From the NCBI GenBank assembly GCA_903923175.1, contig CAIXWQ010000706.1:1-19763 (forward strand): DNA of 19,763 nucleotides. Direction: 5' to 3'. The notes under the pieces were generated by a model, which had not been told where the DNA came from, ran no database searches, and saw only the letters and a list, made by a program, of their open reading frames with translations. Below, one piece after another: positions 2,663 through 15,343 of this stretch (positions are counted from its first letter, which is position 1; each line of letters begins with the position of its first letter). The position numbers and the translations under genes were made by a program. This DNA is from an uncultured delta proteobacterium. GTDB taxonomy: Bacteria > Myxococcota_A > Polyangia > Polyangiales > JADJMO01.

Positions 2663-2691
2663 TTGACACTGGAGCTTCCGTTCGTGATACC
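2663..2691 (+). promoter_or_regulatory. Candidate sigma70-type promoter for the lipoprotein/collagen-like operon
   Basis: A perfect TTGACA at 2663-2668 lies in the only locally AT-richer patch of the 2601-2714 intergenic region. A weak -10-like TGATAC/GATACC follows 16-17 nt later (2685-2691). This would place a transcription start about 15-20 nt upstream of the GGGAGG at 2699-2704. The -10 element is poor. Confidence 0.25.
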
Positions 2692-2714
2692 GCTACTCGG
2701 GAGGCGCACCAGCT

Positions 2715-3158
2715 GTGCGCGTCGGCGGAGGCGCGATGCTTCGACTGCGCAGATGCACGTTACTCGTCGCCGTATGTACGGCGATGGCGGCAGTGGGCTG
2801 CGGCGGCAGCGATTCGACCGTAGACGGCAGCGACACCGGGACCGGCGACGACGGCGGTGACGCCGGCGAGGCGGGCGATGACGCCGGCGAGGCGGGCAAT
2901 GACGCCGGCGACGACACCCTGACCGACTCGGGCGGTGGCGGTGACGCCGCCGACGCTCCGGGCGACGGCGGGCTCGACGCCGCGCCCGTCGTCAACGGTC
3001 TGCCGGGCCTGGCGCTCAGCGCCGGCGGCACCGTCTGCAAGAGCACCAACTACAAGATGATCGTGACGCTCGGCCAGAGCCCAGGCGGCAACGGCACGGG
3101 CAAGTCGACCAACTACCAACTTCGCGGCGGCGTCATCGGCGCCTCGCAGGCACCGTGA
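2715..3158 (+). CDS. Small secreted acidic Gly/Asp-rich lipoprotein with an in-frame tandem repeat
   Basis: GTG at 2715 sits 10 nt after GGGAGG (2699-2704). An alternative ATG at 2736 sits after GGAGG (2727-2731). The signal peptide with lipobox-like motif is [22 protein letters not shown]|GG. The body is D/G/A-rich (DAGEAGD repeats). The C-terminus carries a duplicated GKSTNY(K/Q) motif. The stop is 14 nt before the next gene's start. Confidence 0.7.
2859..2913 (+). repeat. In-frame 21-nt tandem repeat (2.6 copies) encoding DAGEAGD / DAGEAGN / DAGD
   Basis: gacgccggcgaggcgggcgat (2859-2879) is followed by gacgccggcgaggcgggcaat (2880-2900) and a partial third copy (2901-2913), read directly from the sequence. 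Confidence 0.8.
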
Positions 3159-3172
3159 GGGAGGCCGTGACC

Positions 3173-4519
3173 ATGAGCCGAAAGTTCCGAGCGTCGGGTG
3201 TTGCAGTCGCGGCGATCCTCGCGGGCGTCGCCTACGCAGCCGTCGCGGGCGCCGTCCCGAAGGTACTCAACGAGCAGGGCCGCCTGCTCGACGCCACCGA
3301 CAAGCCCGTCACGGGCAGCGTCTCGCTGGTCTTCACGCTGTACGACGCGCCGACCGGCGGCGCGACGCTGTGGACCGAGATGCAGACGGTCACGCTCGAC
3401 AGCGGCTACTTCTCCGCGCGCCTCGGCGAGACGACCCCGATCCCGGCCACCGCGTTCGACGGCAGCACGCGCTACCTCGGCGTGAAGGTGAACGCCGATC
3501 CGGAGATGTCGCCGCGCCAGGAGGTGTCGAGCGTCCCCTATGCGCTCGTGGCCGACAACGCGACCGGCGACATCTCGCCGCACTCGATCATCGTCAACGG
3601 CACGACCATCGTCGACTCGACCGGCAAGTGGGTCGGCGCGGTGGCGGGGCTGCAGGGCGCGACGGGGCCCGCGGGCGCAGCGGGCGCAACCGGCGCAGCG
3701 GGCGCGACGGGGCCTGCCGGTCCGCAGGGCGCGGCGGGGGCGACGGGCGTAGCCGGGCCGACGGGGCCGTCCGGGGTCGCTGGAGCGACGGGCGTGGCCG
3801 GGCCGACGGGGCCGACCGGACCGATCGGGGCGACGGGCGCAGCGGGACCGACGGGGCCGACCGGACCGATCGGCGCGACGGGTGCGGTGGGCGCGACGGG
3901 GTCGATCGGCCCCATGGGACCGATGGGCCCCACGGGCCTACAAGGCGTGGCCGGCCCGACCGGCCCCACGGGTCCGATCGGTCCGACGGGGCCGACCGGC
4001 GCGACGGGCGCCACCGGCCCTCGCGGACCGGGCGCGGGCACTTTCTACAAGAGCATCTCGTCGCTGACCTGCGTCCCCATGAACGGCGCGACGGGTAACA
4101 CGAACAACTGTTCGGGCGGCGGCACGACCCGCACGGACGGCACGAGCGTGTTCCCGTGCATGCTGCAATCCACCAGCACGCTCAACACCTATATGTGTGA
4201 TGTCGGCCTCCCGAGTGGCGCGGTCATCACCGAGGTCGTCGCCTACGGCATGGACTCCGACGCGGCTGGGTACTTCGAGGCGGCGATCTGGAGGACTGGC
4301 AACACCACCTTCGGGCCGACGTTCCTGAGCAGCAGCTTCGGCGGCACGTGGCAGAGCTCGGGAGTCGCGTTCACTGGCGGCACGACGTCCTTCCCGATCT
4401 TCCAGACCACCGACACGCCGCACACGGTGGTGAGCGACTCCCGCTACACGATCGGTACGGCGCTCAAGGGCTCGGGCGTGGGCTCCTTCGGCTTCCGCAT
4501 CGCGTACAACATCCCGTAG
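3173..4519 (+). CDS. Secreted collagen-like triple-helix repeat protein: N-terminal beta-rich domain, 43 G-X-Y triplets, and a C-terminal Cys-containing globular domain
   Basis: ATG at 3173 is preceded by GGGAGG (3158-3163). A GTG at 3155 is also in frame. The signal peptide is [27 protein letters not shown]. An uninterrupted (G-X-Y)43 tract spans 3647-4033 ([16 protein letters not shown]…GPRGPG), rich in GPT/GAT/GPI triplets. The C-terminal domain of about 160 aa has 5 Cys and is Thr/Ser/Gly-rich. The stop is TAG at 4517-4519. Confidence 0.85.
3647..4033 (+). repeat. Collagen-like G-X-Y coding repeat tract (43 triplets) containing a 45-nt internal tandem duplication
   Basis: Every third codon is GGN across 129 codons. 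The unit [14 protein letters not shown](A/V) is duplicated at 3800-3844 and 3845-3889 with about 40/45 nt identity. Confidence 0.85.
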
Positions 4520-4526
4520 CGCCGAG

Positions 4527-5042
4527 TCACCGCGGCGGGGGAACGAGGACGTCGAGCTTCACGACCTCCCCGTTCGCCCGCTTCGCGCTCACCGTGACCG
4601 TCTTCCCGGTGAGCGCGGGATCGCTGTTCATGACGATGAGGCCACCCTTGCCGTTCGGCATGACGGTGAGCGCCGGGTTGGTCACTTCGTAGCCCACGTA
4701 GTCGGGCGCGCTCGAGGACGCGGGCGCGCCCGTCGTTGCGACCGGAGCCACGGCAGCCCCCGCGGAGCCCGTCGACACCGCCGCCGGCGCGCGCAGGCGC
4801 AGCTCGGCAACCTCGGCGCGCAACGGCGCGATCTCGCGGCGGAGGTCGTCCTGCGCGCGCACGAGCTCCGCGCGCTCCGAGGCCCACGACGCGCTGCCTG
4901 GGGGCGCATTCGGGCGGAGCGCCGCGTAGATCGACACGATCAGCGCGAGGGCGGACACGACGAGCGGGGCGAAGCGAGCGCGATCGGTGGGAGCGGCCAA
5001 GGGCCCACCATACCGCACGCCGCCGAGTCGCCGAAAAGGCAC
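4527..5042 (-). CDS. Hypothetical single-pass membrane protein with a coiled-coil segment and a small C-terminal beta-domain
   Basis: The start is GTG at 5040-5042, or GTG at 5016-5018; neither has a clear SD. A TM helix (FAPLVVSALALIVSIYAAL) is followed by a coiled coil (ERAELVRAQDDLRREIAPLRAEVAELRL), an Ala/Ser/Thr linker, and a conserved-looking C-terminal domain (YVGYEVTNPALTVMPNGKGGLIVMNSDPALTGKTVTVSAKR). The opposite-strand alternative here is an Arg/Pro-rich low-complexity frame, which favours this ORF. Confidence 0.45.
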   Translation of the reverse strand: MPFRRLGGVRYGGPLAAPTDRARFAPLVVSALALIVSIYAALRPNAPPGSASWASERAELVRAQDDLRREIAPLRAEVAELRLRAPAAVSTGSAGAAVAPVATTGAPASSSAPDYVGYEVTNPALTVMPNGKGGLIVMNSDPALTGKTVTVSAKRANGEVVKLDVLVPPPR

Positions 5043-5101
5043 GTCGCGAGGGCGCCGCGCCGCGCTTGACCGCGCCGAGCGGGGCCGGCGACGCTGCGTG
5101 C

Positions 5102-7318
5102 GTGGCGCAAGGCGGGCCTCTCGCGCGAACGCTGGCGCTCTCGGCCGCGGTCGCCGTCTCGTGCGCCTCGTGCGCCTTCGGCTGTACCGCCGCGAGTCCT
5201 CCCGCCGCGCCCAGCTGCGCGGTCGACGAGCCCCTCGCCGCCGATGGCAGCTGCATTGCGCCGGGCGTCCCGCCTTCGCTGTGCGGCGACGGGTTCACGT
5301 CCGACGGCGCCGGCGGGTGCGCGCCGGTGCTCCTCGCCGAGCCGTGCGCCGCGGGGACGATGGCGGTCCCCGGCGAAGGCGCGTGCCACGCCGTCGGCGC
5401 GGTCGAGCCGCCCACGTGCCCGCGCGGAGCGCTCGCGAGCGTGGGCGAGTCGGCCTGTCACGAGGTCGCGCCGTGCGGCGCGGCGCCGTGGGGCACCATC
5501 CCGGTCGACGCCACCACGGTCTACGTCGACGCCGCCTACGGGGCGACCGACGGTGACGGCAGCGCGGCCAAGCCGTTTCGCACGATCGCCGAGGGGCTCG
5601 CGCGAGCGCCGTCGGGCGGCATCCTCGCCATCGCGGCCGGGCGGTACGTCGAGAGCGTCGCCCTTCAGGCGAAGCCGGTGAAGCTCTGGGGGCGCTGCCC
5701 GTCGATGGTCTCCGTCGAGGCGTCCGGCGCCGCGCCTGCGCTGGTGGTGCGCGGCGCGGCCTCGGCGGGCGCGGAGGCCCACCAGCTCGCGTTCAGCGGC
5801 CCTGGGCGCGGCGTCGCGGTCTCCCAGACCAGCGGCGTCGTGCTCGACCGCGTCTGGATCCACGACACCGGATCCGAGGGGCTCACCACCGGCGGCGAGG
5901 TGCTGCTCCGCGCGTCGCTCGTCGAGCGGACCGTCGGCGCGGGCGTGCACGTATCGGGCTCCGCGGTGACGATCGACGAAAGCGTCCTGCGTGACGTCCA
6001 GCCGGACGCGGCCGACGACTACGGTCACGGCGCGCTCGTCGACCAGGCCGGCTCGCTCGTCGTGACGGCGTCCGTGATCGAGCGCGACGTCGACGCCCTC
6101 GTCTCGGCGGAGGCGAGCGACGTGCTGGTGGACGGGAGCGTGCTGCGCGACGGGCTCGCGCACGCGGACGGCCGGCTCGGCGACGGGATCTCCGCCGTAT
6201 CGCTCGGCGGGCGCGCGTCGCACGTCACGCTGCGCGGCTCGACGCTCGCGCGCACGCGCCACGCCGGGATCTTCGCGATCGCGAGCGAGGTCGCCGTCGA
6301 GGGCTCGTTCGTGCACTCCACCCGGGGGACCGCGGACCAGCAGACCTACGGCGCGGGGCTCTTCGTCGTCGACGATCCGATCGCCGGCACACCCTCGCTG
6401 GCGAAGGTGAAGGGCTCGCTCGTGTCGGACAACCACTACGCCGGCATCGCCTGCGTCGGCAGCGTGCTCGACGTCGAGGGCTCGGTGGTGCGCGACGACC
6501 TCGCGCAGGAAATCGACGGAAGCTACGGCGTCGGGATCTACGCGCAGCAGGACGACGGCGTCTCGCCGCCCGCGCGCCCCGACGTGACCGTGCGCGGCTC
6601 GCTGCTCGAGCGCAACCAGGTGGCCGAGCTCGTGCTGCTGGCCGGCGACGGCGTCGTCGAGGCGTCGGTGCTGCGCGACACGCTCGCCGAGCAGCAGGGC
6701 GGGCTCGGCGAGGGGATCCTCGTCGGCGCCCAGGGAGCCCCCTCGACCCTCGCCGTTCGCGCGTGCGTGCTCAGCGGCAACCGCGCGGCGGCGATCGACG
6801 CCTACGCGGCCACGCTCGAGGTGACGGCGACCGTCGTGCGCGCGACGCTGCCGCGCGCCTCCGATCGGCTCTACGGCTACGGCATCTACGCGCAGGCCTC
6901 GCAGCTCACGCTCGGGGCGTCGCTCCTCGACGCGAACCACGCCGCGGGCGTGTTCCTGGACGGCGGCAGCGCGACCCTCGAGTCGACGGCGATCCGCGGC
7001 ACGCTCGGCAGCGACGTCGACGGCACGTTCGGCGACGGCCTCGCCGCGACCGGCGGCGCGACGGCGACCATCCGCCGCTCGCGCGTCGAGCGAAACGCGC
7101 GCGCCGGCATCTCGGCCTTCTCGTCGACGGTGACCCTCGACGGCGATGGCCTCGCCTGCAACGCCTTCGCGCTCGACGGCGAGGCGATCGGCGGCGCGCC
7201 CTACGCCTTCGAAGTCGCCTCTCCGTGCAGCTGCGCGTGCGGGAGCGAGGCCGCTCCGTGCCAGGTCTTGAGCAGCATGCTCACGCCCCCCACGCCGCTC
7301 CCGCCGCGGACGCACTGA
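5102..7318 (+). CDS. Large secreted right-handed parallel beta-helix repeat protein (pectate-lyase-like fold, DUF1565-type N-cap) with an N-terminal Cys-rich repeat region
   Basis: The most likely start is GTG at 5102. It gives the signal peptide M-AQGGPLARTLALSAAVAVSCASCAFGC. An in-frame TTG at 5066 is also possible. The region 5156-5495 has 13 Cys in evenly spaced C-x(9-12)-C modules (…SCAVDEPLAADGSCIAPGVPPSLCGDGFTSDGAGGCAPVLLAEPCAAG…). The beta-helix cap is DGDGSAAKPFRTIAEGLARAPSGGILAIAAGRYVE. More than 10 coils with a recurring GS(V/L)(L/V)RDxLA motif follow, and the C-terminus contains CSCACGSEAAPC. The long antisense ORF here is low-complexity. Confidence 0.8.
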   Translation: MAQGGPLARTLALSAAVAVSCASCAFGCTAASPPAAPSCAVDEPLAADGSCIAPGVPPSLCGDGFTSDGAGGCAPVLLAEPCAAGTMAVPGEGACHAVGAVEPPTCPRGALASVGESACHEVAPCGAAPWGTIPVDATTVYVDAAYGATDGDGSAAKPFRTIAEGLARAPSGGILAIAAGRYVESVALQAKPVKLWGRCPSMVSVEASGAAPALVVRGAASAGAEAHQLAFSGPGRGVAVSQTSGVVLDRVWIHDTGSEGLTTGGEVLLRASLVERTVGAGVHVSGSAVTIDESVLRDVQPDAADDYGHGALVDQAGSLVVTASVIERDVDALVSAEASDVLVDGSVLRDGLAHADGRLGDGISAVSLGGRASHVTLRGSTLARTRHAGIFAIASEVAVEGSFVHSTRGTADQQTYGAGLFVVDDPIAGTPSLAKVKGSLVSDNHYAGIACVGSVLDVEGSVVRDDLAQEIDGSYGVGIYAQQDDGVSPPARPDVTVRGSLLERNQVAELVLLAGDGVVEASVLRDTLAEQQGGLGEGILVGAQGAPSTLAVRACVLSGNRAAAIDAYAATLEVTATVVRATLPRASDRLYGYGIYAQASQLTLGASLLDANHAAGVFLDGGSATLESTAIRGTLGSDVDGTFGDGLAATGGATATIRRSRVERNARAGISAFSSTVTLDGDGLACNAFALDGEAIGGAPYAFEVASPCSCACGSEAAPCQVLSSMLTPPTPLPPRTH

Positions 7319-12590: not shown

Positions 12591-13526
12591 ATGTCCGTGT
12601 CGATGGATGCGCGAGCAACGATGGCACGGCTCGGCTTCGACGAGCGCGAGCTCCAGAGTCGACGGGCGATCTTCGAGCTGCACGACGAGGACCTGCAGCG
12701 CCTCACCGCGATCCGCGCGATCGCGGAGCGCCACATGGCCGAAGTCGTGGACGGCTTCTACGCGCTCTTGCTCGGACACCCGGGCACGCGCCGCTTCCTG
12801 ACCGACGACGCCCAGGTCGCGCGGTTGAAGCGGACCCAGAGCGCGTACTTCCTGCAGCTCTTCGACGGCCGCTGCGATCTCCCCTACGTCGAGAACCGCA
12901 TCCGCGTCGGCGCGGTCCACGAGCGCATCGGGCTCGCGCCGAAGTGGTACATCGCGGCCTACCGGCGCTACCTCGCGCTGCTGCTCGAGCGCGTCGTCTT
13001 GGACATCCCCGATCGCGCCGAGGCGCTGGCGGCCTACCAGAGCCTCAAGAAGATCGTCGCCTTCGACATGTCGATCGCGATCGACACCTACATCGCGGCG
13101 AACCTCGAGTCGCTCGGGCGTCACCAGGCCGCGATCCGCGAGCTCTCGACCCCCGTCATCCGCGTGCACGAACGGCTCCTGCTGCTGCCGCTCGTCGGCG
13201 CCATCGACAGCCAGCGGGCGCAGCAGGTCATGGAGATGGTGCTGGTGCGCGTCATCGAGGAGAAGGCGCGCGCGATCATCATCGACATCGCCGGCGTGCC
13301 CGTCGTCGACACCAAGGTCGCCGATCACCTGCTCAAGACCACCGCCGCCGTGAAGTTGATCGGAGCGCAGACGATCTTGACCGGCATCAGCGCGCAAGTC
13401 GCGCGCACCATCGTGCAACTTGGCGTCGACATCTCCTCGATGCACACGCTCGCGCGCCTCTCCGAGGGCATCGAGCTGGGGCTCGAGCTCGTTGGCAAGA
13501 GAATCGCTCCGAAGGAGCCCTCGTGA
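12591..13526 (+). CDS. rsbR: RsbR-like stressosome sensor protein (N-terminal non-haem globin-type sensor domain + C-terminal STAS domain)
   Basis: ATG at 12591. The N-terminal 165 aa resemble the RsbR non-haem globin domain (RLTAIRAIAERHMAEVVDGFYALLLGHPGTRRFLTDDAQVARLKRTQSAYFLQLF…WYIAAYRRYLALL). The C-terminal STAS domain is PVIRVHERLLLLPLVGAIDSQRAQQVMEMVLVRVIEEKARAIIIDIAGVPVVDTKVADHLLKTTAAVKLIGAQTILTGISAQVARTIVQLGVD. The gene order with the next two genes is the canonical rsbR-rsbS-rsbT order. Confidence 0.85.
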   Translation: MSVSMDARATMARLGFDERELQSRRAIFELHDEDLQRLTAIRAIAERHMAEVVDGFYALLLGHPGTRRFLTDDAQVARLKRTQSAYFLQLFDGRCDLPYVENRIRVGAVHERIGLAPKWYIAAYRRYLALLLERVVLDIPDRAEALAAYQSLKKIVAFDMSIAIDTYIAANLESLGRHQAAIRELSTPVIRVHERLLLLPLVGAIDSQRAQQVMEMVLVRVIEEKARAIIIDIAGVPVVDTKVADHLLKTTAAVKLIGAQTILTGISAQVARTIVQLGVDISSMHTLARLSEGIELGLELVGKRIAPKEPS

Positions 13527-13898: not shown

Positions 13899-14330
13899 AT
13901 GGGCTCGCTGGCGTTCGAATCCCAGACGCTGTCGTCCGAGACGATGGCGATCGATCGCGAGGAGGACATCGTCCACGTGCGCAAGCGCGCGCGGATGCTG
14001 GCCCAGGCGCGCGGGTTCGACGCCTTCGCGTGCGCCGCGCTCACCACCGCGGCCTCGGAGCTCGCGCGCAACGTGTGGGTGCACGGCGGCGGCGGCCAGG
14101 CGACGCTCGAGGAGCTCTCCGACGGCAACCGCTTCGGCATCCGGATGGTCTTCCGCGATCAGGGCCCGGGGATCGCCGACCTCGAGCGCGCACTTCAGGG
14201 GGGCTACTCCACCGCGCGCTCGCTCGGCCTCGGGCTCTCCGGCACGCGGCGGCTCGTGGAGGACTTCGCCATCGACACGCGACCCGGTGAAGGGACGCGC
14301 GTCACGATCACCAAATGGACTCGTTTCTGA
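13899..14330 (+). CDS. rsbT: RsbT-like serine/threonine protein kinase (GHKL/anti-sigma-factor-kinase fold), the stressosome switch kinase
   Basis: ATG at 13899 follows GAAGGG (13882-13887). A GTG at 13893 is an alternative. The N-box is ASELARNVWVHG. The G-boxes are DQGPGI and SLGLGLSG. The size (about 143 aa) and its position after rsbS match RsbT. Confidence 0.85.
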   Translation: MGSLAFESQTLSSETMAIDREEDIVHVRKRARMLAQARGFDAFACAALTTAASELARNVWVHGGGGQATLEELSDGNRFGIRMVFRDQGPGIADLERALQGGYSTARSLGLGLSGTRRLVEDFAIDTRPGEGTRVTITKWTRF

Positions 14331-15343
14331 TCGAGCGGTGGGTCTCCCACCTCGATCGGCTGACGATCTACGACGAGGCCTCGGTCTCGGAAGCGCGGCA
14401 GCGCGCCCGGGCGGCGGCCGCCGCCGCGGGGATGTCCGCCGACGCGGCGGCGACGCTCGCGCTGATCGCGAGCGAGCTCGCCCACAACCAGCTACGCCAC
14501 GCGCGCGGCGGGCAGATCGCCGCGAGCGTCTTCGCCCGCGGCGACCGGCTCGGGGTCGAGATCGTCGCCGCCGATCGCGGCGGAGGGATCGCGGATCCGT
14601 CGGCGGCGATCGAGCACGGCGCCTCGACGGGCGGCGGCCTCGGCGCGGGGCTCGCGGGGGTGCTGAGGCTGGCCGACGAGGTCGATTTCGACATCCGCCT
14701 CGGCCAGGGGACTTGCGTCTGGGCCCGCAAGATCGAGGGCGCGAGCCACCGACGCGAGGTCGCCGTGCTCGGCCGCCCCGCCGACGGCGAGCGCGTCAGC
14801 GGCGACGACGCCTGCTTCGTGCGCGACGACGACACGCTCGTGCTCGCGCTCGCCGACGGCCTCGGGCACGGCCCCGACGCGAGCCTGGCGGCCCGCGCCG
14901 CGGTGGAGACGGTGCGCAACGCCCCCGCTCGCGCGCTCCCCGATCTGCTGCGCGAGGCAGGCGCCGCGCTCGTGCGGACGCGCGGCGCCGCGATGTCGAT
15001 CGTGCGCATCGACGAGCGGTTCGCCGAGCTGCGCCACGCGGGCGTCGGCAACGTCACGGCGCACGTGGTCTCCGCCGACTCGCAGCGCGCCTTCAGCGGC
15101 ATCTCGGCGGTGCTCGGCATGGAGCCGGCGCGCGCGCCGCTGCGTCGCGCTCGCACCGACGAGGATCACGCCCCCTTCGGCCCGTGGGACGTCGCGTTCC
15201 TGTTCACCGACGGCTTGACGACGCGCACGCGCCTGGAATCCGAGAGCGGCGCGCTGCGTCGCCATCCCGTCCTGATCGCCGACGCGCTGCTGAAGGCGTT
15301 CGGGCGCACGCACGACGACGCGACGGTCATCGTCGTCTCGTGA
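14315..15343 (+). CDS. Fusion protein: RsbT-paralogous GHKL Ser-kinase domain (residues about 1-150) + PP2C/SpoIIE-type (RsbX-like) phosphatase domain (about 152-342)
   Basis: ATG at 14315 lies 16 nt inside the rsbT 3' end. The N-terminal domain aligns motif-for-motif with the preceding RsbT (IYDEASVSEARQRARAAAAAAG… ASELAHNQLRHARGGQ, DRGGGIAD, STGGGLGAGLAG). The C-terminal PP2C motifs are LALADGLGHGPDAS, FLFTDGLT and HDDATVIVVS. Confidence 0.85.
   Translation: MDSFLIERWVSHLDRLTIYDEASVSEARQRARAAAAAAGMSADAAATLALIASELAHNQLRHARGGQIAASVFARGDRLGVEIVAADRGGGIADPSAAIEHGASTGGGLGAGLAGVLRLADEVDFDIRLGQGTCVWARKIEGASHRREVAVLGRPADGERVSGDDACFVRDDDTLVLALADGLGHGPDASLAARAAVETVRNAPARALPDLLREAGAALVRTRGAAMSIVRIDERFAELRHAGVGNVTAHVVSADSQRAFSGISAVLGMEPARAPLRRARTDEDHAPFGPWDVAFLFTDGLTTRTRLESESGALRRHPVLIADALLKAFGRTHDDATVIVVS

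Follow-up and report, generated by a model that had tools for sequence, protein, structure and literature searches.

Paired genes for a lipoprotein and a collagen-stalked fibre in an uncultured member of the Myxococcota, a candidate cassette for a surface adhesin

The forward strand of contig CAIXWQ010000706.1 (assembly GCA_903923175.1), from an uncultured delta proteobacterium of the Polyangiales (Myxococcota_A; Polyangia), carries at positions 2736 to 4519 two consecutive genes coding for a small acidic lipoprotein and for a secreted fibre protein with a collagen stalk. The contig was analysed over its whole length of 19,763 nucleotides (nt), called the window below. Both proteins have conserved homologues and the adjacency of their genes is conserved as well, which places the locus far above chance. 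The N-terminal domain of the fibre (N-domain) is apparently related to that of the mosaic adhesive trimer (MAT) fibres of Bdellovibrio bacteriovorus (Caulton et al. 2024, PMC10769870). We lean, with reserve, towards reading the two genes as the cassette of a cell-surface adhesin fibre tethered or assembled by its own lipoprotein, to which an anchoring role can be provisionally attributed. The pair and its elements are laid out as follows (positions in the window, strand, feature; aa, amino acids).

2601-2735: divergent intergenic region of 135 bp, with TTGACA at 2663-2668 and GGGAGG at 2699-2704.
2736-3158, +: lipoprotein gene, 140 aa plus stop; 147 aa if it starts at the alternative GTG 2715.
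2736-2801, +: lipoprotein signal peptide ending in the lipobox AVGC (Cys22, followed by GGSD); the Cys aligns with the lipobox of homologues.
2802-2972, +: acidic low-complexity linker rich in Gly, Asp and Ala, holding a 21-nt tandem repeat.
2973-3152, +: conserved C-terminal module (C-module) of ~50 aa, consensus G..G..LV.GG.V..S..Y.MV.TLGQ.........S..YRL.GGLVGAT.
3159-3172, +: intergenic spacer of 14 nt, with the ribosome-binding site GGGAGG at 3159-3164, 8 nt before the fibre ATG.
3173-4519, +: collagen-stalked fibre gene, 448 aa.
3173-3253, +: Sec signal peptide, aa 1-27, with predicted cleavage between AGA and VPK at a position conserved in relatives.
3254-3532, +: aa 28-120, the conserved beta-sandwich core at the N-terminus, a distant relative of the MAT N-domain.
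3533-3646, +: conserved neck (GDI.P.S..V.G..VID..G.WVG) between the core and the collagen.
3647-4033, +: uninterrupted (G-X-Y)43 collagen tract, aa 159-287, rich in GAT and GPT and nearly uncharged.
4034-4516, +: C-terminal tip of 161 aa with 4 Cys, a predicted all-beta jelly roll resembling carbohydrate-binding modules (CBMs) and lectins.

The partnership of the two genes was followed in contigs taken at one genome per species, a scan that yielded 531 candidate stretches and 400 confirmed relatives of the N-domain. The family analysis covers 88 N-domain genes, extracted from the best 79 loci of the 400 relatives; 80 of the genes are complete. Locus L058 comes from Polyangium fumosum DSM 14668 and loci L050 and L053 from Polyangium sp. 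6x1, both of them carriers that can be cultured. The C-module is found less than 450 nt upstream and on the same strand for 50 of the 88 fibre genes (48 of the 84 with enough upstream sequence), and in 22 of the 50 pairs the stop of the first gene and the start of the second overlap by 4 nt, with an overlap of 1 nt in 2 more. When the lipoprotein is taken as the starting point, each of the three homologues with genomic context has an N-domain gene immediately downstream, the fibres concerned differing beyond the N-domain (Cys-rich, Xlink or collagen). A metagenome scan seeded with the C-module added eight testable loci, in each of which an N-domain gene starts about 100-150 nt after the module; two further metagenome contigs end too early and stand outside these eight. 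Combined, the fibre gene lies immediately downstream in 11/11 testable lipoprotein-anchored loci. An original prediction made from the letters of the window had proposed a two-gene operon with a dedicated lipoprotein partner and had named a lack of co-occurrence in related genomes as one observation that would speak against it. Its coordinates, gene sizes and 14-nt gap are correct, and the counts above reveal clear co-occurrence and an adjacency conserved across relatives.

The divergence of the C-module and that of its cognate N-domain are correlated (pairwise identities, Mantel r=0.67, 0/2000 permutations). Loci L071 and L073 each carry two tandem pairs, where the duplicated fibres keep their own lipoprotein. 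This correlated divergence, together with the tandem duplicates, indicates that the two genes are passed on and duplicated together as one cassette.

The product of the first gene is, from its sequence, a bacterial lipoprotein with predicted acylation. A recognisable lipobox is present in 42 of 50 homologues and in relatives its Cys is again followed by G-[GS]-D. The protein has a biased composition (G 32, A 18, D 16), and the acidic repeat of its linker, foreseen by the original prediction together with the lipoprotein character, is real (21-nt period, 3.5 copies, 2842-2915). Direct homologues are few, nine having been found, with matches also in short metagenome contigs of the ENA. They have in common only the lipobox and the C-module, while the linker differs in length (about 40-200 aa) and in composition, being rich in Asp and Gly in some homologues and in Pro or Thr in others. 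The C-module of the window lipoprotein matches the hidden Markov model (HMM) with E=2.9e-31; it gives no match in Pfam or in PDB sequences, and a profile-profile comparison detects no similarity to the fibre N-domain. An NCBIfam match of the lipoprotein to 'invert_tail' (E=0.003) spans the signal peptide alone and was rejected. Two start codons are possible. GTG 2715 lies 10 nt after a GGGAGG and would add the extension MRVGGGAM, which the L006 orthologue encodes too; ATG 2736 is preceded by GGAGG at a distance of only 4 nt. The mature lipoprotein is identical for either start.

The C-module was found away from a fibre gene in two loci only, L023 and L036, where it is still within 2.5 kb of one. 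L023 (5238-6164) codes for a 308-aa lipoprotein, composed of a globular domain and the C-module, directly downstream and not upstream of the fibre gene; masked sequence (a run of N) follows and could hold a further fibre gene. In L036 (1088-3841) the cassette is more elaborate: a tandem of two lipoproteins, both combining a Cys-rich domain with a C-module, lies upstream of one fibre gene, and next after the lipoproteins comes an OmpA-family protein whose Asp repeats are of thrombospondin-type-3-like kind.

The second gene codes for a secreted collagen-like protein with non-collagen ends, as anticipated: a Sec signal peptide is followed by the (G-X-Y)43 tract with its flanking N- and C-terminal domains. 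Searches of PDB sequences with the N-domain were empty or insignificant. In the neck, G132, I134, P136, G151, W153 and G155 are near-invariant in the 80 complete relatives, and the neck, present whatever tip follows, is the likeliest candidate for a trimerisation and registration element. Its predicted local distance difference test values are 36-61, of low confidence, in the AlphaFold2 monomer models of the fibre end domains, which are usable although their alignments are shallow, with 7 and 11 sequences.

The collagen tract is rich in Thr, Pro and Ala as the original prediction held, with mostly Pro (21) and Ala (15) in X positions, mostly Thr (20) and Ala (10) in Y positions and one charged residue in its whole length. 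It matches Pfam Collagen (PF01391) at 64.6 bits (E=6.8e-18), above the cut-off of 27.2, an outcome in agreement with the HMM check that had been suggested. At a rise of 0.286 nm for each collagen residue, the 43 triplets would be ~37 nm long if triple-helical. A bacterial collagen tract is also found in the surface adhesins Scl1/Scl2 of Streptococcus and Lcl of Legionella. The non-collagen N-terminal domain of Scl nucleates the trimer, and Scl2 is stabilised by charged residues, whereas the tract of the window is uncharged. Matches to NF038330, NF038329 and NF046116 reach 70, 54 and 66 bits versus cut-offs of 325, 400 and 500 and involve the Gly-X-Y tract alone; there is no LPXTG sorting signal at the fibre C-terminus (...FRIAYNIP). 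The fibre is assigned by Pfam to bacterial collagen-like proteins and lies outside the Scl, Lcl and BclA families.

The tip belongs, from its structure model, to the all-beta jelly rolls of CBM or lectin type. PDB sequence searches with the tip were empty or insignificant. C1q/TNF-like or tail-fibre domains had been named as search targets for the fibre ends; the tip looks closer to a jelly roll of carbohydrate-binding type than to C1q/TNF. The module is portable: copies with 45-55% identity are found without collagen in secreted proteins or lipoproteins of ~260 aa from Myxococcus fulvus and relatives, and the same tip type occurs also behind other collagen tracts. Two of the stand-alone proteins of M. 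fulvus, devoid of N-domain and collagen, have the consecutive locus tags SAMN05443572_103351 and SAMN05443572_103352, which suggests tandem paralogues. Such proteins of cultured Myxococcus species would be convenient for experiments on the ligand of the tip.

The N-domain defines a very large superfamily without a Pfam model: its profile retrieves 51,527 cluster representatives among 1.84 billion proteins with E<=1e-3, of which 636 reach E<=1e-30. The best 79 loci all belong to Myxococcota, mostly Polyangia, or to unclassified delta/proteobacterial metagenome-assembled genomes (MAGs), and several copies per genome are found (7 of the 79 loci from JACQWT, 6 from CAYLJT, 4 from Byssovorax STL-MYX20). 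The common architecture is a signal peptide, a beta-rich N-domain of ~130 aa, a variable collagen stalk and a swappable tip. Collagen tracts are present in 73 of the 80 complete relatives, with 0-137 triplets over the whole set, and are recognised as Collagen in 69 by Pfam/NCBIfam. The regions that follow them fall into 31 clusters without detectable mutual similarity, and the tip families recognised by Pfam/NCBIfam include C1q, Xlink, fibrinogen-like (GGGWT), ILEI and others. Throughout the family, the tracts carry little charge (11% of 2,768 triplets) and do not depend on hydroxyproline, with GPT among the dominant triplets. A GPT-dominated composition is unusual for stable bacterial collagens, and glycosylation of Thr or the flanking domains may supply stability. 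Hydroxyproline-free, nearly uncharged GAT/GPT-rich tracts of such varied length may interest protein engineers.

Collectins, ficolins and C1q of animals likewise present a trimeric C-terminal recognition head on a collagen stalk. The heads of the bacterial family include C1q, fibrinogen-like and link/C-type-lectin-like domains, but the N-terminal domains are unrelated, the host is bacterial and no sign of higher-order bouquet assembly is seen here. The likeness to these defence collagens is architectural and results probably from convergence or domain shuffling. The search of 2.9 million viral contigs gave a single relative, at L086 (2926-3822) on the IMG/VR contig IMGVR_UViG_3300050581_000179. 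It codes for a 298-aa protein with a signal peptide and the same N-domain, without collagen, and there is no lipoprotein module upstream of it. By eye, we take its C-terminal stretch (GWALCDGTNGTPNLRNRF...) to resemble a phage tail-collar motif.

Relatedness to the MAT fibres was judged through the NCBIfam model of their N-domain, NF053851 (Bdello_MAT_N). The isolated N-terminal region of the window fibre matches this model at 39.4 bits (E=5e-10), below the cut-off of 60, and 70 of the 80 relatives match it too, all sub-threshold, with a best E-value of 3e-12. These profile matches indicate a distant relative of the MAT superfamily and not a member of the Bdellovibrio subfamily modelled by NF053851. 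The superfamily is already known in outline beyond Bdellovibrio since Table S3 of PMC10769870 holds one Myxococcales MAT with a beta-helix and one collagen-like MAT from Saprospiraceae. MAT fibres are surface-exposed and let Bdellovibrio recognise diverse prey (PMC10769870). Both groups of proteins have a signal peptide directly followed by a conserved beta-rich N-domain of ~130 aa without PDB homologue, diversified and independently folding C-terminal tips including folds of lectin and TNF type, many paralogues per genome, and a host lineage of predatory bacteria. The Myxococcota family follows the design logic of MAT fibres, in which the end next to the cell is conserved, the shaft varies in length and the head can be exchanged. 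It differs by the shorter size of its proteins (250-730 aa versus ~1,000 aa) and by a collagen triple-helix stalk in place of meandering beta-helix or coiled-coil segments. Unlike in MAT, Pfam/NCBIfam searches detect no S74 chaperone-protease tips among the relatives. A further difference is the upstream lipoprotein, with or without a tetratricopeptide repeat (TPR) protein, which goes unmentioned in the main and supplementary texts of PMC10769870.

The TPR protein of the window is encoded divergently upstream of the lipoprotein:

1281-2600, -: TPR envelope protein, 439 aa, with 5 predicted N-terminal transmembrane helices and a C-terminal TPR domain matching Pfam TPR families.

It displays the motif YNLA..G.Y..AREGYL..L...P....ARYNL..LTH..G...EARHHL. 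Homologues are found beside the fibre gene at 18 of 60 loci with a lipoprotein versus 1 of 33 without one (Fisher p=0.002, on loci that are not independent), the 18 being L004, L011, L012, L014, L015, L024, L025, L027, L033, L035, L036, L053, L058, L064, L079, L089, L091 and L092. Their scores of 150-236 bits arise partly by construction, the HMM having been built from the same neighbour sequences; an independent tblastn against the TPR protein of the window gives 33-52% identity with E-values of 9e-9 to 2e-22. The orientation of the homologues varies and two forms exist, one of ~430 aa with multiple transmembrane segments and one of ~300 aa with a signal peptide or lipobox. NCBIfam yields for the window protein sub-threshold generic TPR matches alone (PrsT, PilW, BcsC, Tgl, SycD, GltE and PgaA), several of which (PilW, Tgl, GltE, BcsC, PgaA and SycD) are envelope assembly factors. 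The TPR protein is a candidate third component of the cassette, as a putative assembly or export helper. Neither the lipoprotein partner nor the associated TPR protein was found in the literature that could be searched.

Put together, these elements could work as follows. The fibre protein would be exported by Sec and would assemble into a trimer, as its collagen tract implies, with the N-terminal beta-sandwich and the neck as cell-proximal base, the 43-triplet helix as a rigid ~37-nm spacer and the tip as a glycan-binding head contacting prey, substrate or matrix polysaccharide. The lipoprotein, translated from the same mRNA, would act as a lipid-anchored tether whose C-module binds the fibre base and whose flexible acidic linker joins the module to the outer membrane, and the TPR protein may help periplasmic assembly or export. 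The fibre is likely extracellular, since stalks of 0-118 nm misfit a periplasm of fixed width and since MAT fibres are surface-exposed in Bdellovibrio.

The binding partner of the N-domain on the predator surface was explicitly left unidentified in PMC10769870. The locus of the window and about 60 similar ones put a dedicated, often translationally coupled lipoprotein next to a MAT-type N-domain, thereby offering a concrete and experimentally testable candidate for this partner. It is a tentative proposal, which we hold with less assurance than that of the cassette itself, that the lipoprotein is the cell-surface receptor holding MAT-type N-domains on the outer membrane, a role that it would fill through its C-module, perhaps aided by the TPR protein. 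If true, it would explain in general terms how diderm predators display trimeric mosaic fibres that are exported by Sec, and it would define in Myxococcota a recognition repertoire akin to collectins, ficolins and C1q. The Myxococcota, also predatory, hold in any case a large repertoire of collagen-stalked proteins with exchangeable heads, undescribed in the searchable literature.

Several observations weigh against a tethered adhesin. About 43% of the fibre genes have no adjacent lipoprotein, so that the N-domain cannot depend universally on it; its presence is clade-structured, and it is adjacent to none of the 8 JACQWT fibre genes (7 loci) nor to those of the 4 Byssovorax MAG loci sampled. 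No position of the N-domain cleanly separates lipoprotein-paired from unpaired fibres, and the correlated divergence of module and N-domain could reflect co-inheritance alone. There is no evident route for the fibre across the outer membrane. The match to the MAT model stays under its cut-off, the structure models of the end domains suffer from their shallow alignments, and the idea of glycan binding derives from a resemblance of the tip fold to CBMs and lectins at 4-13% identity.

The main rival, which we consider improbable though worth serious attention, is that the lipoprotein is an assembly or export factor, pilotin- or chaperone-like and possibly working with the TPR protein, that is absent from the final structure. 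Tight translational coupling suits chaperone-client pairs equally well, the TPR protein enriched at lipoprotein loci has its sub-threshold similarities to the pilotin PilW, the lipoproteins Tgl and GltE, and BcsC, PgaA and SycD, and the many fibres without a lipoprotein of their own are expected if one helper serves several of them in trans. However, the linker that separates the lipid anchor from the module is long, variable and disordered, and so resembles a tether more than a folded chaperone, while duplicated fibres often keep their cognate lipoprotein (L071, L073) and the two proteins diverge in a correlated manner.

BclA, from the exosporium of Bacillus anthracis/cereus, combines an N-terminal attachment domain, a Thr/Pro-rich collagen region of variable length without hydroxyproline and a beta-rich globular C-terminal domain that is C1q/TNF-like. 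This protein of a Gram-positive spore is attached through a separate partner protein, BxpB/ExsFA. The three-part design and the separate partner are shared with the pair of the window, and the GPT/GAT-rich, almost uncharged tract recalls the GPT-rich collagen region of BclA. As myxobacteria form spores and abundant matrix, the fibre might then be a structural collagen of the matrix or of the spore surface, like the BclA nap, with the lipoprotein as its attachment point on the envelope of the cell or spore. We regard this as rather unlikely. The N-domains are unrelated, the partner is here a lipoprotein, and the window fibre has a CBM-like tip and lacks the C1q/TNF-like C-terminal domain of the BclA type. 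No sporulation or glycosylation genes are found nearby, and 31 unrelated tip types in 80 paralogues, including many ligand-binding folds (C1q, fibrinogen-like, link, CBM-like), argue for diversified recognition and not for a single structural role.

It is much less credible that the adjacency is incidental, the lipoprotein being an unrelated small envelope protein that shares the operon. The unpaired fibre genes and the conjectural nature of a lipoprotein-fibre interaction would fit, but the fibre gene follows in every testable lipoprotein-anchored locus despite differing tips and neighbourhoods, the 4-nt overlap is frequent, and the C-module was found away from fibre genes in L023 and L036 alone, still within 2.5 kb of one. 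Phage tail fibres are trimeric and commonly have a conserved attachment end, a repetitive shaft with collagen-like repeats and an exchangeable receptor-binding tip. That the pair is a prophage remnant coding for such a fibre and its assembly protein is the most far-fetched of the alternatives: it could appeal to this likeness, to the first annotation of MAT fibres as phage-related (PMC10769870), to the tail-collar-like relative in IMG/VR and to weak fold matches to phage minor tail proteins, but both proteins carry export signals (Sec and lipoprotein) that virion proteins lack, a PHROGs search gives no significant match, the 19.8-kb window has no phage genes and the context is chromosomal, one relative among 2.9 million viral contigs stands against 400 in genomes, and the viral fold matches are generic beta-sandwiches (TM 0.3-0.5).

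The pair forms a self-contained unit, since it is bounded by the divergent TPR gene upstream and by a convergent gene ending at 4527, 7 nt past the fibre stop. The GC content of the window is 72.8%, and that of third codon positions is 0.85 in the lipoprotein gene and 0.91 in the fibre gene, as in flanking genes, which supports these frames and designates the overlapping open reading frames in other frames as GC artefacts. The region 2601-2735 must hold the promoter(s). A perfect -35 element had been predicted to drive the pair: the TTGACA hexamer exists at 2663-2668, but a scan of the pair region found no sigma-70-type promoter and no acceptable -10, the best candidates, TGATAC/GATACC at 16-17 nt after TTGACA, matching at 2-3 of 6 positions. 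A scan for an intrinsic terminator of the pair was also negative, a PADLOC search returned nothing, and the fibre protein has no exact database match in its 448-aa or 454-aa form.

The convergent gene (4527-5042, -) codes for a membrane-anchored protein of 171 aa whose family is not recognised, with one weak homologue beside the fibre in L039. It is followed at about 5100-7318 (+) by the gene of a large right-handed beta-helix protein (Pfam Beta_helix) with a lipobox-like N-terminus (SCAFGC), which also weakly matches the Leptospira LIC10774 surface-protein model; from its sequence, it probably adds a further envelope or surface protein to the neighbourhood of the cassette. Farther away and unrelated to the cassette, a protoglobin-STAS fusion (12591-13523, +) is encoded upstream of a HATPase_c_2/SpoIIE (PP2C) protein (14315-15340, +). 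The two genes are flanked by those of a PAS-LuxR regulator and a histidine kinase, and the pair looks like a haem-sensor partner-switching module.

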